From: Candidatus Multivoradales bacterium
Lineage (GTDB): Bacteria; Acidobacteriota; Thermoanaerobaculia; Multivoradales; J023
DNA: 64,000 nt
Direction: 5' to 3'
Assembly: GCA_965248925.1 (NCBI GenBank)
Contig: CBDFLE010000005.1
Coordinates: 32,001-96,000, forward strand
Shown here: one piece after another, positions 4,645-27,500 of the stretch
Numbering within the stretch: the first letter of the stretch is position 1
Layout: each line of letters opens with the position of its first letter
The notes under the pieces: model-generated
Told to the model about the DNA's origin: nothing
The model's input: only the letters and a program-made list of their open reading frames with translations
Databases searched by the model: none
Made by a program: the position numbers and the translations under genes

Positions 4645-5105
4645 CCAAACGGCCACTTTATTGGTCGCCTGCCTTCGTTGATGGACCCGCTCCTTGTCGC
4701 TCCTCTTCAGCTCACGCCGAGAATTTCCCAGACCGACGGCGATCTTCGCTAGTTGCCGAGAATCCGAGGCGCCTGAGCGAGCCTCACCGTGGACAGCGCG
4801 TCGCAGCAGCCCATCAACTCGCCAGCCTGAGCCGCTCTACTTGGGCGCATAGAAGCCAGAGAGCACTCCTTGCCAGGCGGTCATGAATCGTAGGTGCCCC
4901 CGTGAGGGCTTGCGGCCGGTCCAGATCTCGGCTGGCGTGTAGCCATCGAGGCTTTGGTGCGGGCGCAGTTCGTTGTACCAAAACCGGAAGACATCCAGCT
5001 GCCGCTGGGCCTTGCGGCCCGCTGGCAGCGGCTCGCGCCGCCGCCGCAGGCGCTCTTTGAAGGTACCGAAGAACCGTTCGACGCGGCCGTTCTGCCAGGG
5101 CGAGG
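4610..5105 (-). pseudogene. 496-bp remnant of the integrase element (terminus plus 3' part of the integrase gene)
   Basis: Near-identical direct copy of 5106-5601, cut off by a second TGTCCCGTCC end at 5106. Confidence 0.9.
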
Positions 5106-5332
5106 TGTCCCGTCCGCCGCGTCCGCGATCAAAATCGTAGCCAAACGGCCACTTTATTGGTCGCCTGCCTTCGTTGATGGACCCGCTCCTTGTCGCTCCT
5201 CTTCAGCTCACGCCGAGAATTTCCCAGACCGACGGCGATCTTCGCTAGCTGCCGAGAATCCGAGGCGCCTGAGCGAGCCTCACCGTGGACAGCGCGTCGC
5301 AGCAGCCCATCAACTCGCCAGCCTGAGCCGCT

Positions 5333-6247
5333 CTACTTGGGCGCATAGAAGCCAGAGAGCACTCCTTGCCAGGCGGTCATGAATCGTAGGTGCCCCCGTG
5401 AGGGCTTGCGGCCGGTCCAGATCTCGGCTGGCGTGTAGCCATCGAGGCTTTGGTGCGGGCGCAGTTCGTTGTACCAAAACCGGAAGACATCCAGCTGCCG
5501 CTGGGCCTTGCGGCCCGCTGGCAGCGGCTCGCGCCGCCGCCGCAGGCGCTCTTTGAAGGTACCGAAGAACCGTTCGACGCGGCCGTTCTGCCAGGGCGAG
5601 GCCAGCTGGGTGCGCTGGTGGCGAATACCCAGTATGGCCAGCGAAAGCCGGAAGATCCAAGATGTAAAGACTGGCTCGTTGTCAGTGCGCAAGCACTTTG
5701 GCTTGCCGCATAGCTCGATCGTGTTGAGCAGCTGGCGAACCAGCTCAATGGAGGCTTTGGTCTTCACCGTCTGAAGGCTCAAGCAGAGCCGAGTGCCGTG
5801 GTCGAGCAGGCCGAAGATGGTTTCTTCCTTGCCGGAGGTGTTGTCGGCGTAGGTGAGATCGGCGGCCCAGATCAGCCGCTTGCCGCCGATCCCAGGTTTT
5901 CTCCTGCGGATCTTCCGGCGCCAAGCGAGAATCTCCAGCTGGTGCTCGTTGAAGATCTTTGCAACGTAGCTCTTGCCCACCGTCATTCGGCGATGGCGGT
6001 AGTTGCGATTGAAGGCTGCCGCGATCGCCCTACAGCCATCGTCGGGCTGCAACGCCTTGAGCCGGATCACCGCTTGGCGCACCCACTTGGGCTTGCGCCG
6101 GCAGAAGCCGCGATAAGTCGTTGGGTCGGGTGGACACTTGGCTCGGCGGCGGTGCTTCGCCCTGGGTTGCAGGGCGAGCGAAGTGAGCGCAAGAATCAGA
6201 AGCAACACGAACGCCCAGAGCAGGGCGCCGGCAAGATCAGAAGTCAT
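5333..6247 (-). CDS. rve/DDE integrase-transposase (IS481/IS3-like core) with N-terminal hydrophobic segment and HTH-like region
   Basis: WAADLT (D), RTDN (D), PWQNGRVERFFGTFK (E), WYNELRPHQSLDGYTP. Confidence 0.9.
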   Translation of the reverse strand: MTSDLAGALLWAFVLLLILALTSLALQPRAKHRRRAKCPPDPTTYRGFCRRKPKWVRQAVIRLKALQPDDGCRAIAAAFNRNYRHRRMTVGKSYVAKIFNEHQLEILAWRRKIRRRKPGIGGKRLIWAADLTYADNTSGKEETIFGLLDHGTRLCLSLQTVKTKASIELVRQLLNTIELCGKPKCLRTDNEPVFTSWIFRLSLAILGIRHQRTQLASPWQNGRVERFFGTFKERLRRRREPLPAGRKAQRQLDVFRFWYNELRPHQSLDGYTPAEIWTGRKPSRGHLRFMTAWQGVLSGFYAPK

Positions 6248-9189: not shown

Positions 9190-12100
9190 TTGATCCTCCG
9201 GGTTCGTGATTTAGGCAACCCTACCCTGGAGATCTTCAACCGCGACCAGAGCACGACTTGGACGCTGGGGGAAGCGGTGCCGCCGGGCCTCACCCTGGCC
9301 CCGCCCAGCCCACCGAGCGGCACGGCGGCCGTCTCGCTCACCGTCAGTGGCATGGCGACGGCGGATCTTCCGGTGACCCTGCGCAACCTCACCACCGGGG
9401 AGCGCGATAGCGCTCGCGTCGGCAGTGCTGGTGGCGGCGGTGCTGGCAGTTTCTCCCTGAGTCTCAGCGTGCAGCGCGGCGACCGCCTGGAGCTGCTGCG
9501 CAACGAGCTGTCCTTGGCCTACGTGGCGGGTTACGACGCCGGGGTGGTGACGGTGGATCTGAACGCCGTCGAAGCGGTCGATGAGGAAGTCGACGATCCC
9601 TGGGATGCCTTCGATCTGCTGCGCTACAACACCCATTATTTTGTACCGACCGAGGTGCTGTGCTCGACGTTTGAGAACGATCAGCGCTTCGACGTGATCG
9701 AGGCGCGGGTGCTGCCGGCGGCGTCGGAGGGCGAGCCTTGGAGCGTGCTGGCCCTGGTCGAGAATTATGGCTTGCTGTCGCTGGGTGCCTCGGTCGCTGC
9801 GCCGCTCGACAAGCTGGCCTACCGCGACGCTCTGTGCGGCGAGGTCGACGGCAACCGCAAGCTGGGCGGTCTCGATGTGCTGCCCGGCTACCGCTTCGAC
9901 CGTAACGGCGACGGTGTGCTGGACGACGAGGAGCCCGAGCGTGACTACGCGCTGCTCACCAACACCGTCGGTGGCGGCGGTCTTGGCTGGCTGCTGATCG
10001 TCGATGTCACCAAGCGCGATGAGCTGCTTCTTGTGGGCCGCATCGAGCTGCCCGGCCCAGCGACGCGGGTGACTGCTGATCCGGTCGGCCGCCGCGCCCT
10101 GGTCTCAGGCCTCGGTGGCGGGGTCTACATCGTCGACCTCGATCGCTGGCCCGAGCTGGGTGGCGGCGGCGGAACCCCTCAGATCTGGTCGAGCGATCGG
10201 GTGGTCGAGCGCCTGAGCTTTGGCGAGGACGTGCGCGCCCCCACCCTGGTAGCTCCAGAACTGGGCCTGGCCTTCGCCGGTGGCGTTGCCCGCGGCGTGA
10301 CCCCCCTCAGCACCGGCCTGCCACGCCTGTCGCTGGTGACTAGCGGCAAAAAGGGACTGCGCCGGGTCGCCCGGTTGGCGCCATTTGGCGCGCCTACCGC
10401 GCCGGAGAGCGCCGAGGAGGAAGCCGAAGAACTACCCGGCCTGATCCGCGTGCAGGCGCAGCTTCCTGGTGGCCTGGCCGATACCGAGGGCAAGATCCGT
10501 GTTGACCTCGCGGGCATCGGCCCCGCCGGGCTGCCGCTGCGCGGCCTTGGTGAGGGGCTGATGGACGAGCCCGTGGCCGAGCTGAAAGACGATAAGGCGC
10601 TGGTGCTGCAGCGGCAGTCGGACAACCCCCTTTCAGAGGGCTACAACGTCTTCCTCTCCGACCCGGTGGTGCTGCTGGCAGATGTACGCGCCTCGGCGCA
10701 CTTCGAGCGCTCGGAGGCCGAGAAGAAGGTCTGCCGCCGCTGCGACCTGGTGGACGAGGGGGTCTACTCCGCGGCCGATCTACCTCCCAACGAGCTGCAT
10801 GTCGAGCTGCTGTCGGGCCATCAAGTGCGGGCTAGCTACAGCGCAGCCTTCGCCACCAGCCTTGCCGGCCTCTACGATGCCGACCTGCTAGCGGGCTACG
10901 CCGTCGTCGCCGACAGCGTGCCCTGGGATCTCAGCCCCTCGCCGCACCAGGAGCCGGTGCTCAATGCCGCCACTAGAGCGATAGCGGCGCCGGGCACCCT
11001 CTTGCACTCCGGCGAGATGAGCCGCCAGGCGATCGACCTCAGCCTCCAAGGCCGGGGTTTAGATGTGGCCTTGGTGCGCACCTACCGCAGCCAAACGATC
11101 AGCAACGGCCCCCTCGGCCCGGGCTGGGATCATGGCTACCGCCTGCGCCTGCGGCTCTTGCCCAATGGCGATATCGACTTCTTCGACGGCACTGGCCGCC
11201 GCGAGACCTTCACCTTGGAAGACGACCGCGAGCTGAAGCCGCCCGTCGGCCGCTTCGTCCAGCTCAAGAAGTACGCCGAGGGCTACACCCTGATCGGCAG
11301 CGGCTACCAGCGCTGGCGTTTCGACCGCTGGGGTCGTTTAGTGTCGATGATCGACTCGGTGCGCACCAGCGAAGGGACCGGCAACGAGATCACCTTCCAC
11401 TACGACTCCCACTCGCGCCTGGCGCGAATCCACGACGACCTCGACCGCAACACCTTCCTGCACTACGACGACGAAGGCCGCTTAGAAAAAGTCGTAGACT
11501 TCAGCGACCGCGACTTCCTCTACCACTACGACGCCCAGGGCCGGCTGAGCAGTTTCGAGACCCCAGAAGTCGACCTCGGCACCGGCAGCAGCCAGCGCCT
11601 ATCGACCACCTACGCCTACCACGCCGCCGGCACCGGCCTGGCTGGCCAGCTCAGCCAACGCGATGATCTGAAAAGCGAGACTGACGCCAAGAGCCAGACC
11701 TGGCTCACCCTGCGGTATCAGGACTCCGACGGCAACGGCCGCCCCGATGCGCTCAAAGAACAAGATTGGGGAGCGGGGACAGTGCATTTGGCCTTCGATT
11801 TCGACGGCCAGCAGACCACCCTCACCGATCGCCGAGGCAAAGTCTGGACCTACCATCACAACGCTGCTGGGCAGGCCACCAGCCTGGTCGATCCGAAGTC
11901 AGCCAACGGGTCGTGGCAATACGACGGCGAAGGTCTACTGACCCGCGCCACCCGCCCCCTGGGTGGGGCTACCGAGATCGAGTATCCGGCGGACACCTCC
12001 GGCGACCGCCGCGGCAGAGGCGATGCTCTGCGGATGGTTAAGATCGCCGACAGCCGCGGCCCCAACGGCTCGCCCAGCGAGCTGGTGACCACCTGGGAAT

Positions 12101-15100
12101 ACCACTCGCCGACCCACCAGCCCAGCCGAAAGACCGAGCCCGGTGGCGCGGTGACGGTGTGGGTACGGACGGACAATGGCCTGCCCCAGCAAATCGTGCG
12201 GGCGGCTGGCGCGGCGGAGCAGAGCATCACCGGATTGACCTACAACGCCCGCGGCCAGCTGCTGGAAGCCACTAATCCCAACGGTCACGTCACCCGCCAC
12301 AGCTATTTCGCCTCTGGCGGGCAGAAAGGCTATCTGCAGCAAACAGAAGTCGACCCTGGCGGTCTCAGTCTGGTCACCACCTACGAGCGCAATGATCGCG
12401 GCCAGCTGGAGGCGATCACCGATCCGCGGGGTGTGCGCCATGAGACCGAGCTGAACAATCTGGATTGGCCGCTGGCCCAAGTAGCCGCCGCCAGCACCAG
12501 CGGTTTTCTGGCACCCCTCGGCTACCGCACGACCTGGCGCTATGACGCTAACGGCGACATCAGCGAAGTGGCCAGCCCATTCGGCGATGGCTCGACGACG
12601 ACGATCGAGGCTCGTACTTACGGCGTGCTCGGCGAGCTGCTGTCGGTCGAGAGGGAGATGGCAGCGGGAGGTCGGCGGATTGTCGAGACCTCGACCTATG
12701 ACCCAAACCTGAACCTCTTGACTCACGTCGACGGTGCCGGCCAGCGGGTCGAGCGCGAGTACGACGAGCGAGGACAGCTGTCTCTGGTGCGCCGCGGCTT
12801 GGGTACCGGCGCATTGGCAACACCGATTGTCGAGCATCAGAGCTACGACCTCGATGGCCATTTGAGCAGTCAGCGCGATGGCCGCGGCATGACCTGGGAG
12901 GCCGAGCGCGATGGCCATGGCCGGGTGCTGCGCAGCCGCTCGCCTCTCGGCCACTACCGAGAGCAACGCTACAATCCGGCCGGCGATCTGGCTGCCCTGC
13001 TGGCCTACGATGCCGGGGGGCAGCTGCTAGTCGAGAGTGCTTTTGCCTACGATCTGCTGCACCGCCGCACCGAGACCACCGCCTGGCGCTGGACACCGGA
13101 CCCGCAGCAGCCCGACCCCTCTCGTACCGCTGAGAAGACTCGCCATCGGTGGGACGCCGCCAGCAACCTGCTCGAAGTCGAAGATCCGCTGGGTCGCCTG
13201 ACCAGGACTTCTTACGATGCTGCCGAGCGCCCCGAGCGAGTGGAGCTGCCCGAGGGCAACGTGCGCCGCACGACCTACGATTCTGGTGGCTTGCCGATTA
13301 CCGAGCATGCCGACGAGGTCGATCCGGCGGGCGGCTCGCACACCATCACCCATCAATCGACTTTCGATGCCCTCGGCCGCCGCCTCAGCCGCCAAGACGG
13401 AATCTTCGCCAACCGCACCCTCTGGACGGTGGATGCTCGCGGCCAAGTGACCCTCGAAGTCGACCCGACCGGTAGTTTCACCCAGCGCAGCTACGATGGG
13501 CTCAACCGGATGACCCGCGAAGTCCGTCCAGAAGGGATCGCCGTCGACTATGCCTGGGACGACGCCTCGCGCCTCAGCACCTACACCGACGCCCGCGGTC
13601 AGGCCACCCGCTGGACCTACGACGCCGTGGGCCGGCGCACCAAAGTGGTCTACCCTGATCAGCAGCAGGAACGCTGGGTCTATGACCCCACCGGCAACGT
13701 TACCGAGCGCCACGATCCTCGCGGCTTGGTCGTGCATCAGAGCTGGGACGACGCTGGGCGGTTGCAATCACGTACTGTCACCCCGCCGCTGGGCGGCACC
13801 CTCGAAGGGCCGGGGGTCGAGGCTTTCACCTTCGACGGCCTCGACCGCCTGACCCGAGCCCAGTCGGGAAGCGTAGTTACCGAGCGAGTCTACAACTCCC
13901 TCTCCCACCTGGCCTCAGAGACGAATGCCGGACGCACCACCAGCTGGCAGCGCAACGCCCTTGGCGAGCCCACTCGCACTAGCTACCCCTCGGGCCGCCA
14001 GGTCGAGCGCGCCTTCGACAATCTCGGCCGAGCCAGCACGGTTGGCGAACCCGGCGCGCCAGCCTCGATTGCCAGCTACGGCTATCGCGGCCCGGCGATT
14101 GCCTACAAGGCTCTCGGCAATGGTCTCCTGGGCAACATAAGCTTCGATGGCTTGCGCCGGATGGTGGACAACAACTTCAGCCTGGCGGGGGAGTCCGCCA
14201 CCTTCCAGGAAAGCCTGGCCTGGAGTCCTCGCGGCCTCAAGACCGGCCAATCGCGTGGCGATCTGGGCGGTGCTGGCCGGGTCTTCGCCTACGATGGCGC
14301 CCAGCGCCTGATCGAATCCGCTCGCGTGCCCCCGGCTTTGGCTCAGCGCCCTGGCAACACGCCCCCCGACGTGGCCCTGCTGGCCACCTTGCCCGAACGC
14401 ACGAGCTACCAGCACGACAACGCCATGAACCTGATTCGCAGCAGCACCACCCAGCGTGGCATCGAGCAGATCACCGATTTGCCGCCCGACAATCGCAATC
14501 GTCCCAGCGCCTTCGGCGGCGTTGCCCTCGAATGGGATGCCGCCGGCAACATGAAGCGCAAAGGCGATATGCAGATGTACTATGATTTACACAACCGCCT
14601 GACGCGGGTCGCCCGCGCCGGTGTCGAAGTCGCCAAGTATCACTACGACGCCTTCAACCGCCGGGTGAAGGCCGAAACGCCGACACACACTGAGGACAGC
14701 GTCTGGGACGGCTGGCAATCGTTAGAAACCTATCGCGATGGTGCCTTGGCCTCGCGGCGGGTCTACGGCAACGGTATCGACGAGATCCTGCAACAAGAGG
14801 CCGACCTCGACGGAGATGGCACGGTGGAGCAGACTTACTATCCGATCACCGACAGCACCGGCAACGTGGCGATGCTGACCGGAGCTGACGGCAAGCCCAT
14901 CGAGCGCTACTTCTACAGCCCGTTTGGCGGGCGCAAAGTGCTGGTCGACTCCACGCCCCCCGAGGTCGAACAAGTGCGGGTGCAAGACGGTGCACTGTGG
15001 ATCGAGCTTTCTGAAGAAGTCTCCACCGAAGAACTACAAGCCAGCCTGGCCGACGGTCGCATCCAGCTGACCCAGACCAGCGACGGAATGCCCCTGCCGC

Positions 15101-16614
15101 TGACCCTCGATCTGCCCGTCCAGGAAGGCCGTCAAGCTCGGCGAAGACTCGTGCTCACGCCGGCCACGCCGCCGGCCGACGGTGACAGCCTGCGGCTAGA
15201 AGTCGCCGCCAGCGCGCTGAGCGATACCTTCCGCAACCAGGCCAATGCCGGCGTCGATCTCACCTGGACCTGGTCCGCAGCCGACGAAGTGCTGCAAGAC
15301 ACCGCCGCGCCGCGGGTCGCCGAAGTCCTGCTGCGATCACGCATCGTCGAGATCCAGTTCAGCGAAGAAGCCGACCTCGCCGCGGCTGCCAGCGCGATCC
15401 TCTTAGACGGTCAGCCCACTAGCTGGACCCTGGCTGAAGACCGATACACCCTGATCTCTACTACGACGCTGGCAGCAGGAACGCACACACTCGACATCAG
15501 CACCACTGCTCTCGACCTCGCCGGCAGCGGCCTGGTCGCTGCCTTCAGTCAGGCGCTCGACGTGCCCGCCAGCGGCGACCAGCTGGCCTACCAGGCCGCC
15601 GACCCGCGGCTCAGCAGCACCAGCGCCGCCGGCAATGCTCACGGCTTCCATGGCCGGCCGGTGGATGAGGAAACCGGGCTGTTGTACTTCAGGAATCGGT
15701 ATCTTGATCCGGAGATGGGACGGTTTGTTAGTAGCGACCCGATGGGTTATGTGGATGGGCCTAGTGGGTATCAGTTTGCCGGGAGTTCGCCTGGGGATGG
15801 AAGGGATCCGTTGGGGTTGTGTGTGGGGAGGCTAAGAGAGACTGGTTTCTGCAAGGGCGTCAATGATTTGCTAACCGGGTATGGGCCGGTGGTCAATGAC
15901 AATGCCGTTCTCAAGGAGTATGAGAAGGTTAGGCGAGAGGCGGTAAGGGTTCAAGGAGGAATCGCCGCAAGCCCACTAATTCATCAGCAAGTGTACGCCA
16001 ATCTTCATCATGGTAAAATGGAAAGCGTAGCAGGTTTGGTGGTTCATCAAACTGGAGCTGAATCTGCCAAGTCTACATTCAACAATTACAGGTCTTCATC
16101 CGACGGCGCACATTTTCTGATTGCTAGAAATGGTGATATTTTCCAGACAGCCATGGTAGATAGAGTGACATGGCACGTTGGTAAATTGAAGTCGCGATGC
16201 CTAGCCCGAATTGAATACTGCACGCATCCAGTAGTGGATTTTGGAATAGGATCATGGGTCTTGGATTCCATAGAATACGAAAGAGCTTTGGTGGCAAGAC
16301 GCAGCGGCCCAACGCTCCAACACAATCGGGAAAGGGGGAAAGTATATCCGCTTCGATATCCCAGCAATCATGACGCGATTGGGATTGAGCTAGTTGGAGC
16401 CGCCCGGAACCCGGCTACGGGGCTTGCCCCCTACTGGAATGATAAAGCAATTTATGACAACGCGACGTCGCGTCAGAATGATTCATTGTCCTGGCTTGTT
16501 CGCCAACTTCAACGGGAACTCGGAGTGGGAGAAGAGGACGTGTTCAGGCATCCTTTGATTAGTGCTAAGAATGCAACAGAGGCTCAGTCGGCCGATTGGG
16601 GACCCCATGATTAA
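9190..16614 (+). CDS. RHS toxin (core type A) with DUF6531-like region and C-terminal N-acetylmuramoyl-L-alanine amidase (Amidase_2-like); start uncertain, possibly 5'-truncated
   Basis: 'DLSLQGRGLDVALVRTYRSQ...LGPGWDHGY'; YD repeats; DPLG; tip 'LVVHQT...AHFLIARNGDIFQ...WHVG...NHDAIGIELVG...FRH'. Confidence 0.9.
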   Translation: MILRVRDLGNPTLEIFNRDQSTTWTLGEAVPPGLTLAPPSPPSGTAAVSLTVSGMATADLPVTLRNLTTGERDSARVGSAGGGGAGSFSLSLSVQRGDRLELLRNELSLAYVAGYDAGVVTVDLNAVEAVDEEVDDPWDAFDLLRYNTHYFVPTEVLCSTFENDQRFDVIEARVLPAASEGEPWSVLALVENYGLLSLGASVAAPLDKLAYRDALCGEVDGNRKLGGLDVLPGYRFDRNGDGVLDDEEPERDYALLTNTVGGGGLGWLLIVDVTKRDELLLVGRIELPGPATRVTADPVGRRALVSGLGGGVYIVDLDRWPELGGGGGTPQIWSSDRVVERLSFGEDVRAPTLVAPELGLAFAGGVARGVTPLSTGLPRLSLVTSGKKGLRRVARLAPFGAPTAPESAEEEAEELPGLIRVQAQLPGGLADTEGKIRVDLAGIGPAGLPLRGLGEGLMDEPVAELKDDKALVLQRQSDNPLSEGYNVFLSDPVVLLADVRASAHFERSEAEKKVCRRCDLVDEGVYSAADLPPNELHVELLSGHQVRASYSAAFATSLAGLYDADLLAGYAVVADSVPWDLSPSPHQEPVLNAATRAIAAPGTLLHSGEMSRQAIDLSLQGRGLDVALVRTYRSQTISNGPLGPGWDHGYRLRLRLLPNGDIDFFDGTGRRETFTLEDDRELKPPVGRFVQLKKYAEGYTLIGSGYQRWRFDRWGRLVSMIDSVRTSEGTGNEITFHYDSHSRLARIHDDLDRNTFLHYDDEGRLEKVVDFSDRDFLYHYDAQGRLSSFETPEVDLGTGSSQRLSTTYAYHAAGTGLAGQLSQRDDLKSETDAKSQTWLTLRYQDSDGNGRPDALKEQDWGAGTVHLAFDFDGQQTTLTDRRGKVWTYHHNAAGQATSLVDPKSANGSWQYDGEGLLTRATRPLGGATEIEYPADTSGDRRGRGDALRMVKIADSRGPNGSPSELVTTWEYHSPTHQPSRKTEPGGAVTVWVRTDNGLPQQIVRAAGAAEQSITGLTYNARGQLLEATNPNGHVTRHSYFASGGQKGYLQQTEVDPGGLSLVTTYERNDRGQLEAITDPRGVRHETELNNLDWPLAQVAAASTSGFLAPLGYRTTWRYDANGDISEVASPFGDGSTTTIEARTYGVLGELLSVEREMAAGGRRIVETSTYDPNLNLLTHVDGAGQRVEREYDERGQLSLVRRGLGTGALATPIVEHQSYDLDGHLSSQRDGRGMTWEAERDGHGRVLRSRSPLGHYREQRYNPAGDLAALLAYDAGGQLLVESAFAYDLLHRRTETTAWRWTPDPQQPDPSRTAEKTRHRWDAASNLLEVEDPLGRLTRTSYDAAERPERVELPEGNVRRTTYDSGGLPITEHADEVDPAGGSHTITHQSTFDALGRRLSRQDGIFANRTLWTVDARGQVTLEVDPTGSFTQRSYDGLNRMTREVRPEGIAVDYAWDDASRLSTYTDARGQATRWTYDAVGRRTKVVYPDQQQERWVYDPTGNVTERHDPRGLVVHQSWDDAGRLQSRTVTPPLGGTLEGPGVEAFTFDGLDRLTRAQSGSVVTERVYNSLSHLASETNAGRTTSWQRNALGEPTRTSYPSGRQVERAFDNLGRASTVGEPGAPASIASYGYRGPAIAYKALGNGLLGNISFDGLRRMVDNNFSLAGESATFQESLAWSPRGLKTGQSRGDLGGAGRVFAYDGAQRLIESARVPPALAQRPGNTPPDVALLATLPERTSYQHDNAMNLIRSSTTQRGIEQITDLPPDNRNRPSAFGGVALEWDAAGNMKRKGDMQMYYDLHNRLTRVARAGVEVAKYHYDAFNRRVKAETPTHTEDSVWDGWQSLETYRDGALASRRVYGNGIDEILQQEADLDGDGTVEQTYYPITDSTGNVAMLTGADGKPIERYFYSPFGGRKVLVDSTPPEVEQVRVQDGALWIELSEEVSTEELQASLADGRIQLTQTSDGMPLPLTLDLPVQEGRQARRRLVLTPATPPADGDSLRLEVAASALSDTFRNQANAGVDLTWTWSAADEVLQDTAAPRVAEVLLRSRIVEIQFSEEADLAAAASAILLDGQPTSWTLAEDRYTLISTTTLAAGTHTLDISTTALDLAGSGLVAAFSQALDVPASGDQLAYQAADPRLSSTSAAGNAHGFHGRPVDEETGLLYFRNRYLDPEMGRFVSSDPMGYVDGPSGYQFAGSSPGDGRDPLGLCVGRLRETGFCKGVNDLLTGYGPVVNDNAVLKEYEKVRREAVRVQGGIAASPLIHQQVYANLHHGKMESVAGLVVHQTGAESAKSTFNNYRSSSDGAHFLIARNGDIFQTAMVDRVTWHVGKLKSRCLARIEYCTHPVVDFGIGSWVLDSIEYERALVARRSGPTLQHNRERGKVYPLRYPSNHDAIGIELVGAARNPATGLAPYWNDKAIYDNATSRQNDSLSWLVRQLQRELGVGEEDVFRHPLISAKNATEAQSADWGPHD

Positions 16615-17332
16615 AGCAACGAAGTGTACTTACTTCTTTCTCGTCACATCGCTTTTTTTATCCCTTTGTTCTTGTTTGAGAGCTGGTGACATTGGTTTTC
16701 TATTTACTGAAATATTCGGAGGAGATTTCACGGCCGTTGTTGGGGAGTTTTTCGGTGATCGGACTGAGCCGGCATGCGATCAGTTCGAGCTAACTGAAGA
16801 AATTGTAAATTTCTTTTTCCTCAATGCTCGCCTGATTGATGGGTATTCTCTGGAAAAGCAGTACCCGTGGTATCCTTGTGGTTTCGAAGGTTCAGTCACA
16901 ATGGGTGACTTTGATTTTCGCTGGTCTATATCTCCCGGGGGGAAGGGGTTTCTTGAATCAGACGTCTTCGGGTCGATTTATCTGATTTGTGGTGTCGGAT
17001 GTGAAGATGCGTTTCCTCATGGTGGCAATTTGTTTTCTGATGACATTGCGGCGGAGAGGAAGCGTGTAGGCGATACATTGTCTCAGGATACAGTACGATA
17101 CGAGTGGTATGAGGTTTGGGTAGGCCAAGCAGAGGGCGTGCCGCATGTGCTGATCCTTGGGGTTCACGATCGGAATCTAGAGGTGGTTAATCCTCTTGAG
17201 GAGAGTCTTATTGTTGCTCGCTTTTCAAACTATGATGATGCGCGAGAATGGCTTAGCAGGAGATATCAACTCGTTCGAGGTAGGGCCAAGCCGATTCAAT
17301 TGTCCCGTCCGCGGCGTCCACGAACGAAATAG
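16607..17332 (+). CDS. Putative lipoprotein immunity protein for the amidase tip
   Basis: ATG overlaps the toxin end; signal/lipobox-like 'MIKATKCTYFFLVTSLFLSLCSC'; low GC; C-terminus SRPRRPRTK* is encoded by the element end. Confidence 0.7.
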   Translation: MIKATKCTYFFLVTSLFLSLCSCLRAGDIGFLFTEIFGGDFTAVVGEFFGDRTEPACDQFELTEEIVNFFFLNARLIDGYSLEKQYPWYPCGFEGSVTMGDFDFRWSISPGGKGFLESDVFGSIYLICGVGCEDAFPHGGNLFSDDIAAERKRVGDTLSQDTVRYEWYEVWVGQAEGVPHVLILGVHDRNLEVVNPLEESLIVARFSNYDDAREWLSRRYQLVRGRAKPIQLSRPRRPRTK

Positions 17333-17478
17333 TGGCTAAAAGGCCTGTCCCGTCCGCGGCGTCCACGAACGAAATAGTGGCTAAAATGTCCCGTCCGCCG
17401 CGTCCGCGATCAAAATCTGTCCCGTCCGCCGTGTCCCGTCCGCCGCGTCCGCGATCAAAATCGTAGCCAAACGGCCAC
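17301..17478 (+). repeat. Five stacked copies of the element terminus (start at 17301, 17346, 17387, 17418, 17432)
   Basis: Each begins TGTCCCGTCCGC; the first four are truncated at 45, 41, 31 and 14 bp; two sequence variants. Confidence 0.95.
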
Positions 17479-17658
17479 TTTATTGGTCGCCTGCCTTCGT
17501 TGATGGACCCGCTCCTTGTCGCTCCTCTTCAGCTCACGCCGAGAATTTCCCAGACCGACGGCGATCTTCGCTAGCTGCCGAGAATCCGAGGCGCCTGAGC
17601 GAGCCTCACCGTGGACAGCGCGTCGCAGCAGCCCATCAACTCGCCAGCCTGAGCCGCT

Positions 17659-18573
17659 CTACTTGGGCGCATAGAAGCCAGAGAGCACTCCTTGCCAGGC
17701 GGTCATGAATCGTAGGTGCCCCCGTGAGGGCTTGCGGCCGGTCCAGATCTCGGCTGGCGTGTAGCCATCGAGGCTTTGGTGCGGGCGCAGTTCGTTGTAC
17801 CAAAACCGGAAGACATCCAGCTGCCGCTGGGCCTTGCGGCCCGCTGGCAGCGGCTCGCGCCGCCGCCGCAGGCGCTCTTTGAAGGTACCGAAGAACCGTT
17901 CGACGCGGCCGTTCTGCCAGGGCGAGGCCACCTGAGTTCGCTGGTGGCGAATACCCAGTATGGCCAGCGAAAGCCGGAAGATCCAAGATGTAAAGACTGG
18001 CTCGTTGTCAGTGCGCAAGCACTTTGGCTTGCCGCATAGCTCGATCGTGTTGAGCAGCTGGCGAACCAGCTCAATGGAGGCTTTGGTCTTCACCGTCTGA
18101 AGGCTCAAGCAGAGCCGAGTGCCGTGGTCGAGCAGGCCGAAGATGGTTTCTTTCTGGCCGGCGGTGTTATCAGCGTAGGTGAGATCGGCGGCCCAGATCA
18201 GCCGCTTGCCGCCGATCCCAGGTTTTCTCCTGCGGATCTTCCGGCGCCAAGCGAGAATCTCCAGCTGGTGCTCGTTGAAGATCTTTGCAACGTAGCTCTT
18301 GCCCACCGTCATTCGGCGATGGCGGTAGTTGCGATTGAAGGCTGCCGCGATCGCCCTACAGCCATCGTCGGGCTGCAACGCCTTGAGCCGGATCACCGCT
18401 TGGCGCACCCACTTGGGCTTGCGCCGGCAGAAGCCGCGATAAGTCGTTGGGTCGGGTGGACACTTGGCTCGGCGGCGGTGCTTCGCCCTGGGTTGCAGGG
18501 CGAGCGAAGTGAGCGCAAGAATCAGAAGTAACATGAAGGCACAGAGTAGGGCGCCGCCAAGATCGGGAGTCAT
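17659..18573 (-). CDS. rve/DDE integrase-transposase, copy 2
   Basis: Same DDE motifs as 5333-6247. Confidence 0.9.
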   Translation of the reverse strand: MTPDLGGALLCAFMLLLILALTSLALQPRAKHRRRAKCPPDPTTYRGFCRRKPKWVRQAVIRLKALQPDDGCRAIAAAFNRNYRHRRMTVGKSYVAKIFNEHQLEILAWRRKIRRRKPGIGGKRLIWAADLTYADNTAGQKETIFGLLDHGTRLCLSLQTVKTKASIELVRQLLNTIELCGKPKCLRTDNEPVFTSWIFRLSLAILGIRHQRTQVASPWQNGRVERFFGTFKERLRRRREPLPAGRKAQRQLDVFRFWYNELRPHQSLDGYTPAEIWTGRKPSRGHLRFMTAWQGVLSGFYAPK

Positions 18574-18623: not shown

Positions 18624-19091
18624 TCACGTATCACCTCCCGAATGCCAGAAGCCCGGCTTGTGCAACTCCAGCACGAAGTCCACCTCGGCGGCCCTCGTCT
18701 CGTAGTCACGCCGCTCCTTCGCCGCCGCGATCCTGGCGGCGATCTCGCTGGCCAGGTGCTCTCCCTTGCCGGGTCGCGTCGGCAAAGCTTCTCTGGCCAC
18801 ATCGCGGAGGACTTGCTCCACCAGCGCCCGGTCCTTCTTCTTCGGGTCGCTAGCGTGGTTGAGAAACCACAGGATCAGCGCCGCGGGCTCGAGGAAGCGG
18901 TGGTTGACCGCGGCCAGGAAGGCCGCGGTCAGCTCTTCGATCGGTGCGCTGGCAGAAAGCTTAATCTCAGCCAGGCTGTCGATGCTGGAATGATTGAGTC
19001 GCTGGTTGGCGCCGGTGACCTGAGCGGCGATCTGGCGTACTGTCTGGTGGATCTGTTCGGTGGTCATAGGCTTTCTGGACAGAGTGGCCAT
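18624..19091 (-). CDS. Hypothetical 155-aa protein, copy 2
   Basis: One residue different from 6298-6765. Confidence 0.7.
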   Translation of the reverse strand: MATLSRKPMTTEQIHQTVRQIAAQVTGANQRLNHSSIDSLAEIKLSASAPIEELTAAFLAAVNHRFLEPAALILWFLNHASDPKKKDRALVEQVLRDVAREALPTRPGKGEHLASEIAARIAAAKERRDYETRAAEVDFVLELHKPGFWHSGGDT

Positions 19092-19422: not shown

Positions 19423-19440
19423 TCACAATACTCCTTGAGG

Positions 19441-21515: not shown

Positions 21516-24500
21516 TTGATCCTCCGGGTTCGTGATTTAGGCAACCCTACCCTGGAGATCTTCAACCGCGACCAGAGCACGACTTGGACGCTGGGGGAAG
21601 CGGTGCCGCCGGGCCTCACCCTGGCTCCGCCCAGCCCACCGAGCGGCACGGCGGCTGTCTCGCTCACCGTCAGTGGCATGGCGACGGCGGAGCGTCCGGT
21701 GACTCTGCGCAACCTCACCACCGGCGAGCGCGACAGCGCTCGCGTCGGCAGTCCTGGTGGCGGCGGTGCTGGCAGTTTCTCCCTGAGTCTCAGCGTGCGG
21801 CGCGGCGACCGCCTGGAGCTACTGCGCAACGAGCTGTCCTTGGCCTACGTGGCGGGTTACGACGCCGGGGTGGTGACGGTGGATCTGAACGCCGTCGAAG
21901 CGGTCGATGAGGAAGTCGACGATCCCTGGGATGCCTTCGATCTGCTGCGCTACAACACTCACTATTTTGTACCGACCGAGGTGCTGTGCTCGACGTTTGA
22001 GAACGATCAGCGCTTCGACGTGATCGACGCGCGGGTGCTGCCGGCGGCGTCGGAGGGCGAGCCTTGGAGCGTGCTGGCCCTGGTCGAGAATTATGGCTTG
22101 CTGTCGCTGGGTGCCTCGGTCGCTGCGCCGCTCGACAAGCTGGCCTACCGCGACGCTCTGTGCGGCGAGGTCGATGACAACCGCAAGATGGGGGGTCTCG
22201 ATGTGCTGCCCGGCTACCGCTTCGATCGCAACGGCGACGGTGTGCTGGACGACGAGGACCCCGAGCGTGACTTCGCGCTGCTCACCAACACCGTTGGTGG
22301 CGGGGGTCTTGGCTGGCTGCTGATTGTCGATGTCACCGAGCGCGATGAGCTGCTTCTTGTGGGCCGCATCGAGCTGCCCGGCCCGGCGACGCGGGTGACC
22401 GCTGACCCGGTCGGCCGCCGCGCCCTGGTGTCGGGCCACGGTGGTGGGGTCTACATCGTCGACCTCGACCGCTGGCCCGAGCTGGGTGGAGGGGGCGGAA
22501 CCCCTCAGATCTGGTCGAGCGATCGGGTGGTCGAGCGCCTGAGCTTTGGCGAGGACGTGCGCGCCCCCACCCTGGTGGCTCCAGAACTGGGCCTGGCCTT
22601 CGCCGGTGGCGTTGCCCGCGGCGTGACCCCCCTCAGCACCGGCCTGCCACGCCTGTCGCTGGTGACTAGCGGCAAAAAGGGACTGCGCCGGGTCGCCCGG
22701 TTGGCGCCATTTGGCGCGCCTAGCGCGCCGGAGAGCGCCGAGGAAGGTGCCGAAGAAATACCCGGCGTGATCCGCGTGCAGGCGCAGCTTCCTGGTGGCC
22801 TGGCCGATGCCGAGGGCAAGATCCGTGTCGACCTCGCGGGCATCGGCCCCGCCGGTTTGCCGGTGCGCGGCCTCGGCGAGGGGCTGATGGACGAGCCCAT
22901 GGCCGAGCTGAAAGACGATAAGGCGCTGGTGCTACAACGGCAGTCGGACAACCCCCTGTCAGAGGGCTACAACGTCTTCCTCTCCGACCCGGTGGTGCTG
23001 CTGGCTGACGTGCGCGCCTCGGCGCATTTCGAGCGCTCGGAGGCTGAGAAGAAGGTCTGCCGCCGCTGCGACCTGGTGGACGAGGGGGTCTACACCGCGG
23101 CCGATCTACCTCCCAACGAGCTGCATGTCGAGCTGCTGTCGGGTCATCAAGTGCGGGCGAGCTACAGCGCCGCCGTCGCCTCCAGCCTCACCGGCCTCTA
23201 CGATGCCGACCTGCTAGCGGGCTACGCCGTCGTCGCCGATAGCGTGCCCTGGGATCTCAGCCCCTCGCCGCACCAGGAGCCGGCGCTCAATGCCGCCACT
23301 AGCGCGATGGCGGCGCCGGGCACCCTCCTGCACTCAGGAGAGATGACCCGCCAGGCGATCGACCTCAGCCTCCAAGGCCGGGGTTTAGATGTGGCCTTGG
23401 TGCGCACCTACCGCAGCCAAACGATCAGCAACGGCCCCCTCGGCCCGGGCTGGGATCATGGCTACCGCCTGCGCTTGCGGCTCTTGCCCAATGGCGATAT
23501 CGACTTCTTCGACGGCACTGGCCGCCGCGAGACCTTCACCTTGGAAGACGACCGCGAGCTGAAGCCGCCCGTCGGCCGCTTCGTCCAGCTCAAGAAGTAC
23601 GCCGAGGGCTACACCCTGATCGGCAGCGGCTACCAGCGCTGGCGTTTCGACCGCTGGGGTCGCCTGGTGTCGATGATCGACTCGGTGCGCACCAGCGAAG
23701 AGACCGGCAACGAGATCACCTTCCACTACGACTCCCACTCGCGCCTGGCGCGGATCCACGACGATCTCGGCCGCAACACCCTCCTGCACTACGACGACGA
23801 AGGCCGTCTGGAGAAGATCGAAGACTTCAGCGATCGCGACTTCCTCTACCACTACGACGCCCAGGGAAGATTGACCAGTTTCGAGACTCCAGACGTCGAC
23901 CTAGGCAGCGGCAGCAGCCAGCGCCTGTCGACCACCTACGCCTACCATCCCCTTGGCACCGGCCTGGCTGGCCAGCTCACCCAGCGCGATGATCTGAAAA
24001 GCGAGACCGACGCCAAGAGCCAGACCTGGCTCACCCTGCGGTATCAGGACTCCGACGGCAACGGCCGCCCCGATGCGCTCAAAGAACAGGATTGGGGAGC
24101 GGGGACAGTGCATTTGGCCTTCGATTTCGACGGCCAGCAGACCACCCTCACTGATCGCCGAGGCAAAGTCTGGACCTACCATCTCAACGCTGCTGGGCAG
24201 ATGCTCAGCGAGCGCGACCCGGCGTCTCATCAGTCGAACTGGTCCTACGAGCCAAGTGGTGCGCTGGCACAGGCCACCGAGGCGGGGGGAATCACCACCG
24301 ATCTGACCTACGGCTCGGACTCTCCGCGCCAGCGGGGCAATGTGTCGAGCGTGACGACGACGCCTTCCCCTGGCTACCCCAACCCTGTCGCGCCGGTGGT
24401 GGTGCAGGTGCTAGAGAGGGTTAAGAAAACCAATCGGGTGGCCAGTTGGAACGATAAGCACGGTGCGCAGCACCTGATCATCACCTATCCCAACGAGCTG

Positions 24501-27500
24501 CCCAAGGTGCGTCATGACGCCTATGGCACGCCGCTCAACGCCACCTCGTCGATGACGTACGACTTTTTCGGTCGGATCACCGAGCAGACCGCCCCCAACC
24601 AGAGCAAAACCACCTTTACCTATTCCCTTGAGGACGGTTACTTGACTCAGGTGGTCGCCGATGCCCAGAACCTGGCTCTGAGCACCGACTTTCTGGAGCG
24701 CGACGCCCGTGGCAATCCGCTGCGCTGGCGCGACCCGCGCGGGGTGATCCACGAAGCTGAGTACAACGCCCTCGGCTGGCTGCTGCGCCAGCGGCAGGCG
24801 ATCTCAGGCGGGGCTGCCCCGATCGGCCTGGTGAGTGAATTCGACTACGACGCCAACGGCCAGGTCACGGCGACCCGGCGCTCCCACAGTGGCGGCGGGA
24901 TGACCGCCGTTCGCTTCACCTACGGGGTTCTCGGCGAGCTACTGCGCAGCGAGCGCGAGGTCGAGCCCGGCGGGGCGGCGATCCTCGAGACCGTAGCGTA
25001 TGACCCTCACCTCAACCCGACTCGCATCGTCGATGGTGTCGGTGGGGTCACCCTGCTGGAGTACGACGCCCGCAACCTACCGCTGCGCAAGACTAGCGGG
25101 GCGGGTACGGCGGCGGAGATTGCAGAGGAGTACTCCTATGACGCCGATGGCCGGCTGGTGGTCTACACCGATGCTCGCCAACAAGTTTGGCGTACTGAGT
25201 ACGACGGCTTGGGACGCCCCGCGGCACAGATCAATCCGCTGGGAGAGCGCACCGAGACCGAGTACACCCCAGGTGACCTGCCAATCCACCAGCGCCGCTT
25301 GAGTGCCTCGGGCGTCGTGAAGAGCGAGCAGCAATGGCAGTGGGACGTGCGGGCTCGGCAGACCCGCGGCATTGCTCATCTGTGGGCCTATGGCGAGGGT
25401 GGCGGCGATGGCGAAGCTCTTCAGCAGTTGACGACCGAGTTTACTTACGATGCCATCTCGAATCTGCTCACCGTCGAGGGTCCTGGCATCTCGTTGGAGC
25501 ATCGCTACGACTCGGCGGGGCGGCGGACCTTGTCGCAGGACCAGGCCGGCAACATCGTCGAGCTGGACCTTGACCCGCTAGGTCTGGTCACCAGCCAACG
25601 CCACCTTGAGCAACTCGCCGAGGGGGGCACCGCGACCGTCGAGAACACCTTCACCCACGACGCTTTGGGCCGTCCGCTGAGTGAGAGTCTGCCCCAGGGT
25701 GGCAGCCGCAGCTGGCAATATGACGTCCGTGGCAACCTGACCCGTTTTGCCGACGCCGACGGCCGCGTCTGGAGCTGGCAATACGACGGCCTCGACCGCC
25801 GGGTCGCCGAGCAGGCTCCGGGAGGTGTTGACCTCAGCCACACCTATGACCAGGCTTCGCGGCCGCTGACCTACACCGACGCTCTCGGTAACCAGACCCG
25901 CTGGGTCTACGACATTCTGGGTCGGCGCACCGACTGGCTGCTCAACGGCGTCGGAGTAGAGATCTACGGCCACGACGAGAGCGGCAACCCAACCTCCATC
26001 CTGCGCGCCGACGGCAGCCGCATCGATCAGAGTTTCGATGCCGCCGGCCGGCTGATCAGCCGCCAGATCAACCTCCCTGACGGCACCCTGGGCGAGGCCG
26101 AGAGCTACTCCCATGACGCCCTGGGGCGGATCACTCAGCAAACCGCGGGCGGCATCTCCACCCAGCACAGCTTCGACTCGTTGTCGCGGCTGACCGCCGA
26201 GACCACCGCTGATCTCACCGTCGGTTACCAGCACGATGCCGCCGGCAACCTGATTCAGATCAGCTACCCCTCGGGTCGCCGGGTCGACATCGTGCCCGAC
26301 GGGCTCAATCGCCCCTCCACGGTCGCCTGGGCGGCGCCCGGCCCACCCGAAGTCAAGGTGCGCTACGGCTATCGCGGCGGCAATCTGATGTCCTCCCGCA
26401 GCCTGGCCCAGCTCACCGGGGTGAAGACTTTTGATGCCGGCCGGCGCACCGCCGGCTGGCAAGTCCAGGATGCTGGCAACCAGTTGCTGCTCGGCGAAAG
26501 CCTGACCTGGACCCCCGGCTCGCGGCTGGCCACCGCCACCCGCACCGATTTGGGTGGCCTCACCCGTCGTTACGGCTACCAGGACGGTCGCTTGATCTCG
26601 GCCATCCAGACTGGCGGCCCGGCCTCCAGCACCCCGGCCGCCACCGGCTGGGCCGACGTGCCCGCGAGCTTCACCTACAGCTACGACCGAGCCCAGAATC
26701 TGCTGGGGATGGACTTCGCACAAAGCTGCGCAGCCACCCAGGTCGCCCTGCCGCTGGATGGCAGCGGCTGGAACCGCCCGGCTTCAGTAGCCGGCGAAGC
26801 GCTCCAGTGGACCCCACGCCAGGAGCTGGCGAGCAAAGGAAACCTCAACTTCACTTACAGCTGGGACCACCGTCCCATCGAACTTCGGCGCAATGGGGTG
26901 ACGATCGCCAGCTACAAATACGACTCCCAAGGTCGCCGAGTCGAGCGCCAAGTCGGCGCCGACACCTACACCACCGTCTGGTCCGGCTGGCAGCCGATCG
27001 AAGAATACAAAAACGGTCTATTGCACAGCCGCCGCACCTACGGCGTTGGCCTCGACGAACTCATTCGCCTCGAAAGCGACCTCGACGGCGACGGTGTTCT
27101 AGAGCAGGAATACCTGCCCTTCTACGACACGATCGGCAACCTAGTCCTACTCACCAACGAAGCCGGCAAACCCATCGAACGCTACGCCTACGGCCCTTAC
27201 GGCCGGCAGTGGATCGTCGCCGATTTGACAGCGCCCGCAGTCGAGCAGATCCGCATGAAAGGTGATGAGCTGTGGATCGAACTCTCAGAAGAAGTGCGGC
27301 TCGACCGCCTGCAAGCCGCCTCTAGCGCCGGCACGCTGACGCTGGTCAACGCCCTCGGCGATGAAATCAGCTTGCAGATCGAGCAGCCCATCGACAGCGG
27401 CCGCGCCGCCCGGCGGCGCGTGGTGCTCAGCGAGCTGCCGAGCCAGAATCCCCCACGCTGGCCGGTGGCGGGGGAGATTGCCACCCTGACCATCCCAGCC

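Follow-up and report, generated by a model that had tools for sequence, protein, structure and literature searches.

It is well established that displaced toxin-immunity cassettes form arrays behind Rhs and CdiA genes, and the arrival and shedding of these cassettes have mostly been put down to homologous recombination. According to the available text of PMC3150448, displaced or orphan cassettes consist of successive toxin C-termini and immunity genes lying in one orientation behind the full-length gene, and the orphan fragments retain varying upstream toxin sequence. In B. thailandensis, an IS2-like 'megacircle' carries the bcpAIOB contact-dependent inhibition genes, that is, a polymorphic toxin system as its passenger (PMC6350997, in the part available). 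Some insertion sequences also act on themselves: IS30 and IS911 target their own ends, with sequence conversion and rearrangements as a result, and IS30 inserts outside the end, giving only left-end-to-right-end junctions with a short spacer (available part of PMC9333248). The IS3-family element ISPa57 is listed with an IRR that starts TGTCCCGTCC (PMC7378034, table 1).

The locus described here lies in a stretch of 64,000 nucleotides (the window) from a Candidatus Multivoradales bacterium and displays the features of an Rhs polymorphic toxin system, namely RHS repeats, a variable C-terminus, and a small downstream ORF. RHS_repeat matches with E-values of 1e-51 to 1e-71 were obtained for the ORFs at 2-4213, 9190-16614, and 21516-28994. 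The second of these is a toxin gene of 2474 amino acids (9190..16614, plus strand) with RHS repeats, DUF6531, and a C-terminal Amidase_2 domain; it is followed by a 256-aa ORF (16562..17332, plus strand) that occupies the position of an immunity gene and has no family match. The next Rhs gene encodes 2492 amino acids (21516..28994, plus strand). The C-termini of the three Rhs ORFs differ, Amidase_2 being present in the second only, and no family was found for the ORFs downstream of the Rhs genes. Directly behind each Rhs toxin cassette sits a module with a DDE integrase, so that the region forms a tandem array of three units of approx. 12.3 kb, in which directly oriented module tips at 5106, 17432, and 29121, all on the plus strand, have Rhs cassettes in between. 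The second cassette ends at a stack of four head-to-tail truncated copies (stubs) of the outer tip of the integrase module, at 17301-17431, followed by a full tip. This stack is the subject of the present analysis.

Three parts make up the module: the outer tip (TGTCCCGTCCGC…), end sequence of approx. 230 bp, and the gene for a DDE integrase of 304 aa, which is read toward the tip. Behind the stack, the complete outer end reaches up to the integrase stop codon (17432..17658, plus strand; tip TGTCCCGTCCGCCGCGTCCGC); within it, an imperfect palindrome spans about 17450-17490 and an inverted GGACA motif occupies the subterminal positions 17613-17617. The integrase (17659..18573, minus strand) combines an rve/rve_3 core with an N-terminal hydrophobic segment that is conserved in the family. 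In Pfam it scores 64.8 bits for rve_3 (cut-off 26.5) and 29.7 bits for rve, under the cut-off of 32.6; a score of 27.0 for DDE_Tnp_IS240 (cut-off 27) is read as a cross-hit within the rve clan. The core aligns to the NCBIfam models for IS481 and IS3, scoring under both curated cut-offs (112.1 vs. 224 and 98.5 vs. 160, respectively). In a family alignment of 25 sequences, D130 and D189 do not vary and E225 is kept in at least 90%. The integrase is encoded by a single ORF without OrfA and without a frameshift, and the 148-aa frame that overlaps it has no family match. Upstream lies a 155-aa ORF without a family assignment (18624..19091, minus strand), which probably belongs to the module in this lineage because it is partly kept in diverged copies elsewhere in the genome. 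An intact integrase ORF stands behind 10 of the 12 full tips of the genome, and the dN/dS values among the paralogues, 0.14-0.31, place the integrase under purifying selection; given also the rve/rve_3 core and the retained catalytic residues, the enzyme looks functional. A promoter and terminator scan of 16900-18800 returned no promoter-like and two terminator-like sites, the latter against 1.6 expected from shuffles.

A database search with the integrase returned 1078 homologues, and the scans of related loci drew on 80 of 426. The family has one conserved tip, which in 72 of the 80 loci lies 140-340 bp beyond the integrase; the tip in the window begins with TG, as IS3/IS481-type 5'-TG…CA-3' ends would. 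No position-enriched tip motif was found upstream of the integrase in these 80 loci. In the window, neither the 12-mer of the tip with up to one mismatch, nor GGACNNGACA, nor inverted-repeat scans revealed a reverse-strand tip that could serve as an inverted partner end. A near-match at 33555 was rejected as a second end, as it sits in an IS701 element whose perfect 16-bp repeats bound 32053-33595. When module pairs were compared (four Nitrincola copies, L036/L044, eight other pairs, and the tandem in L078), the left boundaries fell at approx. 55-350 bp upstream of the integrase start, shared no common motif, and yielded no readable target-site duplication. Because these searches yielded no inverted partner end, a standard two-ended insertion of a complete copy is hard to see. 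In 23 of 58 related loci examined, an Rhs or CdiA gene lies directly next to the tip. tRNA genes were rejected as a general target, a tRNA being near the tip in only 2 of 60 loci. One weak match was obtained among 72,556 plasmid records; thus, the integrase family is not plasmid-borne in the plasmid collection searched.

Within the stack, TGTCCCGTCCGC begins at 17301, 17346, 17387, 17418, and 17432, and the four stubs measure 45 bp (17301..17345), 41 bp (17346..17386), 31 bp (17387..17417), and 14 bp (17418..17431), all on the plus strand. Each starts with the exact tip, and the inner cut point differs in each of the four. The exact 12-mer of the tip has eight matches in the window, all on the plus strand (4610, 5106, five in the stack, and 29121), whereas 0.76 would be expected from shuffles and none of 100 shuffles reaches eight. 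Stubs 1 and 2 carry allele A (…GCGGCGTCCACGAACGAAATAGTGGCTAAAAGGCC) and stub 3 carries allele B; stub 4 is identical to the adjoining full copy. Between the two allele A stubs and the B copy, 8 of 41 positions differ. None of the four junctions has microhomology, as the next resident base never equals the T of the incoming tip. Stub 1, the leftmost, is on the best reading the oldest. The stop codon of the 256-aa ORF falls within this stub. The five starts, the four lengths, and the two allele strings had all been given in a preliminary description of the locus, and both the sequence and the 12-mer search bear them out. Its further proposal, that these are ends of a transposase type of element and record no fewer than four separate joinings at the same site, is supported by the four exact-tip junctions, their lack of microhomology, the two alleles, and the stacks of relatives. 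The description had not mentioned a longer stub in the preceding array unit, where 496 bp comprising the tip and the 3' part of the integrase gene (4610..5105, plus strand) are cut by the full tip at 5106 (5106..6247; integrase 5333-6247, minus strand), or a possible degenerate 22-bp stub in front of it (4588..4609).

Stubs recur across the copies in this genome, in which 8 of 12 full tips bear them, 16 in total. Break points recur as well: position 31 was used in three independent stubs and position 45 in two. One copy of the module, at C5:2329574, stands singly and is not part of an array. The picture of two alleles and a hybrid at 29121, as first drawn, captures a true A/B mosaic, since this tip is A-type at positions 13 and 20 with a B-type tail; it is too simple in that the 12 full tips comprise at least seven haplotypes, with positions 13 (C/G) and 20 (A/G) in all four combinations. 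Nor has the sister allele ceased to exist in full, as had been supposed: at position 219501 of another contig, C4 (C4:219501), a full element whose 304-aa integrase is intact carries the exact GAACGAAATAGTGGCT allele. The mosaic tip itself (29121..30426; integrase 29346-30260, minus strand) has no stub, and its module is cut at about 30426 with Rhs fragments beyond. It lies 153 bp deeper in the cassette than the tip of a 99.6% identical paralogue on contig C4, which also has a 76-bp stub that is absent at 29121. The site is one case in which a tip junction has deleted flank DNA, a loss that is expected if tips attack nearby DNA.

Stacks likewise recur in other genomes and phyla. When 30 relatives were searched, only diverged copies with 65-71% DNA identity were found. 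Among family-level relatives, stubs of 75, 27, and 32 bp are stacked in L114 and stubs of 17, 33, 33, 20, and 37 bp in L115, where all five differ by SNPs; single stubs of 50 and 101 bp occur in L118 and L120, respectively. In L093, three stubs and the full copy are approx. 25% apart, and strongly diverged alleles are also stacked in L115, L084, and L064. Of 71 loci from other phyla, 7 carry a further perfect match to the opening 8 nt of their own tip no more than 600 bp beyond it on the outer side, compared with 1 of 71 on the reverse strand and 0 of 55 at a distance of 1200-1800 bp. The stack in Nitrincola comprises four stubs of 8 bp followed by stubs of 175 and 52 bp, and the 8-bp stub TGTCCCGT that is found there four times is also present in L046, L069, and L073. 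The similar stacks in other bacteria suggest that the element strikes its own end repeatedly.

The stubs are probably scars left when the integrase joined a tip to a site within the end of a resident copy, with a collapse or deletion afterwards. The reaction chemistry, the collapse, and the sequence in which events occurred are inferred as follows. The integrase would cleave at the tip, and the cleaved tip would be joined to a resident copy of the same orientation, within its first 10-500 bp or just next to them, where integrase bound to the resident end likely draws the incoming end. The two directly repeated copies could then collapse through homologous recombination; in an intramolecular version, the DNA between two tips would be deleted outright. 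Either way, the first k bp of the older tip would remain in front of the newer complete tip, and repeated rounds would build a stack with the oldest stub leftmost. It had been proposed that each event removes or replaces a whole cassette; however, insertion into the resident end followed by collapse would yield the same sequence without any cassette loss. An uncollapsed intermediate, consisting of a stub, a new copy, and a tipless resident, was not seen among the copies and loci examined; the sole tandem module pair, in L078, has approx. 52 bp between its members and includes a stretch of N. At C4:163109-163133, 25 bp of unrelated DNA separate a 112-bp stub from the next stub, an arrangement outside the predictions of the scar model.

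According to a second explanation, which seems rather unlikely although it has points in its favor, the stubs are truncated newcomers: one-ended strand transfer beside a resident tip would copy the first k bp and then abort or switch template, so that each stub would represent an insertion that failed, and the full copy would predate all the stubs. The single recognizable end of the family fits one-ended reactions, the repeated 8-bp stubs of Nitrincola, L046, L069, and L073 resemble minimal products, and the spaced 112-bp stub, together with a stub in L088 that lies approx. 90 bp from the full tip, looks like insertion near a tip rather than in it. However, truncated newcomers would nearly always have to target the junction between flank and tip with base-exact precision, an abutment that the scar model gives for free, and the 153-bp flank loss at 29121 would be left unexplained. 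Furthermore, no lone short stubs were found dispersed at unrelated sites in this genome; the two that do stand alone, 18 and 13 bp long, lie within the contig C4 array.

It is very improbable that the extra tips are something other than neutral scars and have been retained by selection as integrase-binding sites, for titration, regulation, or protection of the cassette border. Stubs of at least 13 bp do keep the first TGTCC/GTCC half-sites conserved across the family, and stacks are common; yet the number, length, and allele of stubs vary freely among the copies of one genome, 4 of its 12 full tips have no stub (3 if a 5-bp TGTCC is counted), and the leftmost stubs at 4588, C4:239494, and C4:269476 have decayed. 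Tandem duplication within one copy by replication slippage or unequal crossing-over, with no transposase involved, is close to refuted. The tip is internally repetitive (GTCC three times within 20 nt), stubs 3 and 4 match the adjacent copy exactly, and Tandem Repeats Finder calls repeat arrays here, splitting the stack into 17301-17416 with period 45 and 17418-17450 with period 14. Slippage between GTCC repeats would nevertheless place a C at the start of a repeat, where T is observed, and the units all differ in length while each opens at the exact element tip. Simple slippage had been named at the outset as the outcome that would speak against repeated events; it is countered by the lack of microhomology at the four junctions and by the stacking of two alleles here and of strongly diverged ones in L093, L115, L084, and L064.

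The junctions are real. Contigs from four Logan runs cover every junction of the stack without differences and at approximately the depth of the unique flank, which gives the read support that the preliminary description had asked for; each junction is covered by overlapping short-read contigs from three or four runs. In run X1, contig 17312-17375 crosses the end of stub 1, 17357-17415 that of stub 2, and 17388-17461 the ends of stubs 3 and 4, at depths of 17-17.4 compared with 18.3 for 16900-17330. The four runs are one sample from one study, which may be the source sample of the assembly itself and is in that case not independent of it. An artefact of assembly or polishing can be dismissed: although the element has more than 12 copies, depth within it climbs to 100-450, and no single short-read contig from the four runs spans the whole stack, the junctions are covered without differences in three or four runs at a flank depth of about 17, and other organisms that were assembled independently, among them Nitrincola with a complete genome, show the same architecture.

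These observations point to an integrase module that is widespread, is located at the border of the cassettes, and preserves a readable trace of repeated hits on its own end. A broader proposal is put forward tentatively: rather than an ordinary insertion sequence, the integrase family might be a single-ended DDE module specialized for polymorphic-toxin loci, which together with an Rhs or CdiA cassette would form a translocatable unit. Such a unit might enter through the tip of a module already in place or via homology to the resident toxin gene, and repeated entry could build and turn over arrays of orphan cassettes, with stub stacks as the footprint of this traffic; the hydrophobic N-terminus would make the enzyme a membrane-tethered transposase. 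Should the module move or delete cassettes, toxin turnover in interbacterial competition would gain a concrete, testable mechanism, and an element with one conserved end that targets this end from inside would go beyond the described reactions of IS30, IS911, and IS26. If the stubs are merely scars of an ordinary insertion sequence hitting itself, they are a tidy curiosity; even as plain scars, stub stacks would be a useful marker of recent element activity. A literature search covering few subscription journals turned up neither this integrase family in the setting of toxin loci nor stacks of end stubs.

On the best reading, the stub stacks reflect insertion-sequence self-end targeting. The parallel with IS30 and IS911 that was drawn initially holds for the targeting itself, which is known behavior of these elements in the available part of PMC9333248, but not for the type of junction. 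Unlike in the reactions described there, no second end is evident here, and a tip is joined into another tip of the same orientation, at a depth of 8-496 bp, leaving stubs behind. With IS3 and IS481 the module shares the rve/rve_3 core and an end that starts with TG; it differs in scoring under the curated cut-offs, in having no inverted partner end, and in its conserved hydrophobic N-terminus, and from IS3 proper in having no orfA/orfB programmed -1 frameshift. The first 10 nt of the tip equal the first 10 nt of the ISPa57 IRR in the table cited above (PMC7378034, in the part available).

As in IS26 translocatable units and the B. thailandensis megacircle (available part of PMC6350997), direct copies of the element flank passenger DNA, as read here from the sequence layout. 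This layout of IS26-type units is common to the three [tip-integrase][Rhs cassette] units of the window and to an array of at least four [tip-integrase][orphan CdiA piece] units in Nitrincola. IS26 and IS2-like elements have two inverted repeats, 5-bp target repeats, and exact junctions in the same text (PMC6350997), whereas the junctions here carry stubs and the enzyme is a single ORF without OrfA; directly oriented copies thus bracket passengers as in an IS26-type unit, but exact junctions and an IS6-family transposase were not found. The window and Nitrincola both show the pattern of displaced Rhs and CDI cassettes. In the available part of PMC3150448, IS elements are named only as disrupting orphan genes, whereas the integrase module described here is a regular unit between the cassettes.

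The 12-mer TGTCCCGTCCGC occurs eight times in the window (4610, 5106, 29121 and five times in one stack), on the plus strand every time, as against 0.76 occurrences expected from shuffles; none of 100 shuffles reaches eight. It forms the tip, that is, the outer end, of a DDE (rve) integrase module. In the stack, its copies start at 17301, 17346, 17387, 17418 and 17432; the first four are stubs (cut-off tip copies) of 45, 41, 31 and 14 bp placed head-to-tail, and the fifth continues into the module. Allele A (…GCGGCGTCCACGAACGAAATAGTGGCTAAAA) is found in the first two pieces and allele B (…GCCGCGTCCGCGATCAAAATC…) in the last three. This re-reading confirms the layout of five nested ends, their lengths and starts, and the two alleles reported in a preliminary description made from the sequence alone. 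Tandem Repeats Finder presents the region as two arrays, and an ORF at 16562-17332 terminates within the first stub. Each stub begins at the exact tip, and the junctions are free of microhomology, the resident's next base being A, G, G or C as against the T of the incoming tip. Short-read contigs (four runs, one sample, one study) overlap across every stack junction with zero differences. In particular, run X1 contigs at 17312-17375, 17357-17415 and 17388-17461 have a depth of 17-17.4, compared with 18.3 in the unique flank (16900-17330), and depths of 100-450 are reached only within the multi-copy element. The junctions are covered piecewise, the whole stack being spanned by no single contig, and the read sample, which is perhaps the one used for the assembly, is hence not independent of the source genome. 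We take the stack to be real DNA.

The integrase behind the tip at 17432 is encoded on the minus strand (17659-18573, 304 aa), its stop codon lying 227 bp from the tip start. It matches Pfam rve_3 at 64.8 bits, and rve more weakly, and aligns to the NCBIfam models of IS481 and IS3 over their catalytic part, with scores far short of both cut-offs (112 vs 224 and 98.5 vs 160, respectively). Of 3430 candidates from a database search, 1078 proved to be homologues; outside the source genome, the closest share about 50% identity, have a length of about 300 aa and are mostly annotated just as "integrase core domain-containing protein". In an alignment of 25 sequences, D130 and D189 are invariant and E225 nearly so, and the N-terminus comprises a conserved hydrophobic stretch (about 20 residues) and then a basic segment, in the place that a DNA-binding domain would take in IS3 or IS481 enzymes. 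A DDE transposase tethered to the membrane would be unusual. The ORF is intact after 10 of the 12 full tips in the source genome, and dN/dS among nine paralogues is 0.14-0.31 (dS up to 0.28); together, these values indicate that the integrase is being kept.

One genome per species was scanned for relatives, which gave 426 stretches encoding one, and 80 loci were retained. Of these, 72 carry the tip motif (at most two mismatches to TGTCCCGTCC, with a TG start) opposite in strand to the integrase and 140-340 bp beyond the integrase match; over a longer stretch, the consensus reads TGTCCCGTCCGC-N-TGTCCGC. Upstream of the integrase, the related loci scanned show no enrichment of a motif like it. 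Inside the tip, at 175-200 bp, there is a short inverted TGTCC motif (GGACA at 17613-17617 in the window); this 25-bp bin has 45 occurrences across the 72 loci, as against 0-4 in the two bins flanking it on each side. These scans thus give the family one conserved end and several half-sites, with no inverted partner found. In module pairs with a common integrase and different flanks, similarity stops 55-350 bp upstream of the start codon, and these left limits have no common sequence.

The source genome (8.0 Mb in six contigs, the window being C5:32001-96000) holds 21 module matches and 12 full tips, seven on C4 and the others at C5:10730, 37106, 49432, 61121 and 2329574. At least one stub precedes eight of the 12, or nine with the inclusion of the 5-bp TGTCC that precedes C5:10730. 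Requiring the first 10 nt to match with at most one mismatch leaves 16 stubs, of 13, 14, 17, 22, 31, 31, 31, 32, 41, 45, 45, 57, 65, 76, 112 and 496 bp. Break points recur, at 31 in three independent stacks and at 45 in two, and decay is greatest in the leftmost stubs (window position 4588; C4:239494; C4:269476). Within the C4 array, there are also two isolated stubs (18 and 13 bp). A search of the genome for the GAACGAAATAGTGGCT allele on a full element found it at C4:219501, with an intact integrase of 304 aa, and a close variant at C4:163187; the sister allele, described beforehand as no longer present in full at this place, thus occurs complete in another part of the genome. The tip at 29121 carries A letters at positions 13 and 20 of the tip and a B tail. 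Its mixed A/B letters bear out the description of a hybrid; however, the 12 full tips comprise at least seven haplotypes, with positions 13 (C/G) and 20 (A/G) in all four combinations, so that it is one mosaic among several. C4 has a counterpart (C4:197068-197298 region) of the cassette preceding 29121, with 99.6% identity. In the window, the tip is stub-free and lies 153 bp deeper in the cassette, so that it cuts short the small ORF after the Rhs gene, whereas the C4 copy retains the 153 bp and a 76-bp stub. Near two contig ends lie nearly identical, about 80% diverged module copies (C5:2329574-2331018 and C6:5213442-5214878); these ends may overlap or be part of a repeat, and the C6 copy has lost its tip to what is, read by eye, apparently another element.

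Stub stacks are a trait of the integrase family. Among family-level relatives of the source genome, stubs of 75, 27 and 32 bp precede the full tip at L114, 50 bp at L118 and 101 bp at L120, and L115 has 17, 33, 33, 20 and 37 bp, every piece distinguished by SNPs. In other phyla, one full tip of the complete Nitrincola genome is preceded by four 8-bp stubs, then by stubs of 175 and 52 bp, and two other tips of the same array have further ones of 8 bp. Rheinheimera (L093) has 73, 17 and 71 bp, from alleles about 25% apart. Stubs are also found at L084 (92 bp), L064 (89 bp), L025 (111 bp) and L060 (24 bp), and short ones at L046 (two of 8 bp), L069 (one of 8 bp) and L073 (8 and 13 bp). Counted strictly, 7 of 71 loci repeat their own first 8 nt exactly within 600 bp outside the tip; in the controls, the reverse complement does so at 1 of 71 loci, and a window 1200-1800 bp away yields 0 of 55. 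At L078:2299-5141, two integrase modules stand in tandem about 52 bp apart, without cargo between them; an N run inside the first end makes this junction untrustworthy.

Judged from their sequence, the stubs point to a reaction of transposase type, in which a cleaved tip is joined to new DNA. A resident copy of like orientation would receive the cleaved tip somewhere in its first 10-500 bp; homologous recombination would then collapse the direct repeats or, intramolecularly, the DNA between two tips would be lost, and the older tip's first k bp would be left behind. This scheme is the simplest; it asks just for a regional preference for the resident end, base-exact abutment being automatic. 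The difference between 29121 and its C4 counterpart fits a tip attacking nearby DNA. We consider it probable that the stubs arose by such joining followed by collapse or deletion. The proposal of the preliminary description that an element end struck one site repeatedly, in at least four events, is supported, but the stubs do not establish the loss of a cassette at each event. The weak points of the joining scheme are the missing second end, a target duplication that is unreadable, the lack of any uncollapsed intermediate among the copies seen, and a stack at C4:162997-163187, in which a 112-bp stub is separated from stubs of 31 and 22 bp and the full tip by 25 bp of filler (C4:163109-163133). 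The filler is unique in the genome and is explained neither by joining and collapse nor by the main rival, in which stubs are aborted one-ended copies deposited beside the resident tip. This rival, a good deal less probable, agrees with the single end and with the 8-bp stubs; however, it requires exact targeting and leaves the loss of 153 bp of flank at 29121 unexplained. Selected binding-site arrays are unlikely, and slippage is slightly more so, being in practice ruled out by the exact tip starts, the absence of microhomology and the stacking of different alleles. Least likely is an assembly artefact, as read contigs cover every junction at about flank depth.

The stack belongs to a tandem array of units of about 12.3 kb, starting at 5106, 17432 and 29121. 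Each unit begins with the tip and, on the minus strand, the integrase, a 155-aa ORF and two small Pterin_4a-like ORFs; then come, on the plus strand, an HTH/TPR protein and an Rhs protein of about 2480 aa, and last a small ORF without family. Thus, a tip directly follows every Rhs toxin cassette. The Pterin_4a-like pair (19117-19923, minus; 160 aa at 41 bits, and 101 aa at 22 bits, below the Pfam cut-off) forms, together with the integrase and the 155-aa ORF, an apparent operon. The Rhs protein at 9190-16614 ends in an Amidase_2 (peptidoglycan amidase) domain and its neighbour (21516-28994) in no recognised domain, so that the array carries different toxin tips. The array is closed by a separate IS701-family element (32053-33595; transposase at 32554-33594, 346 aa) with perfect 16-bp terminal inverted repeats, inside which a reverse-strand near-copy of the integrase tip at 33555 is a chance match.

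Of 130 ORFs beyond the tip, 66 were scanned, representing 58 loci; the longest per locus was taken, with preference for the tip-converging strand. RHS repeats were found at 12 loci and CdiA-type domains (Fil_haemagg_2, DUF637, PT-VENN, TPS/ShlB) at 11, 23 of 58 combined; the remaining 35 had housekeeping genes, other families or no match. On the integrase-start side, where 55 of 140 ORFs were scanned, Rhs or CdiA pieces occur at 9 of 54 loci. Genes of the Rhs/CdiA type account for well below 1% of a genome, and against this sole yardstick toxin genes are strongly enriched at tips. Nitrincola has an alternation of modules (at least four) and orphan CdiA fragments, which start 53-194 bp from the integrase start. 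At two of its loci (L111 and L112; G001:C1:383001-415000), the fragments are joined on this side at differing points in the same CdiA repeat region, and such varied joins suggest independent joins or deletions on the integrase-start side too. In Thiohalophilus (L046:3100-5170), a tRNA-Asp gene with a tip-like 3' end stands about 55 bp from the module; upstream of the integrase, HicAB-like genes and, farther out, a short Rhs-like remnant were called by eye. We tentatively propose that the integrase family is dedicated to moving polymorphic-toxin cassettes, a reading that we hold to be possible rather than probable.

A literature search of incomplete coverage, supplements excluded, found no account of this integrase family or of stacked end stubs. 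In the available text of Poole et al. on orphan cdiA-CT/cdiI modules, IS elements are mentioned solely as disruptions (PMC3150448), and the accessible part of a 2026 preprint on Stenotrophomonas Rhs modules notes, with no detail, that integrases and tRNA genes flank some clusters. The listed IRR of ISPa57 (IS3 family) begins with the same 10 nt as the source-genome tip (PMC7378034, in part). An IS2-like megacircle of B. thailandensis carries the bcpAIOB toxin system; this megacircle and IS26 translocatable units resemble the modules in how the array is laid out and in entering beside a resident copy, but differ in having two inverted repeats and exact junctions (PMC6350997, in part). As the preliminary description stated, IS30 and IS911 target their own ends, inserting beside an end with left-right junctions (PMC9333248, in part), a feature that the source-genome stack junctions do not have. 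We regard the stack as a new form of the targeting of their own ends by DDE elements.
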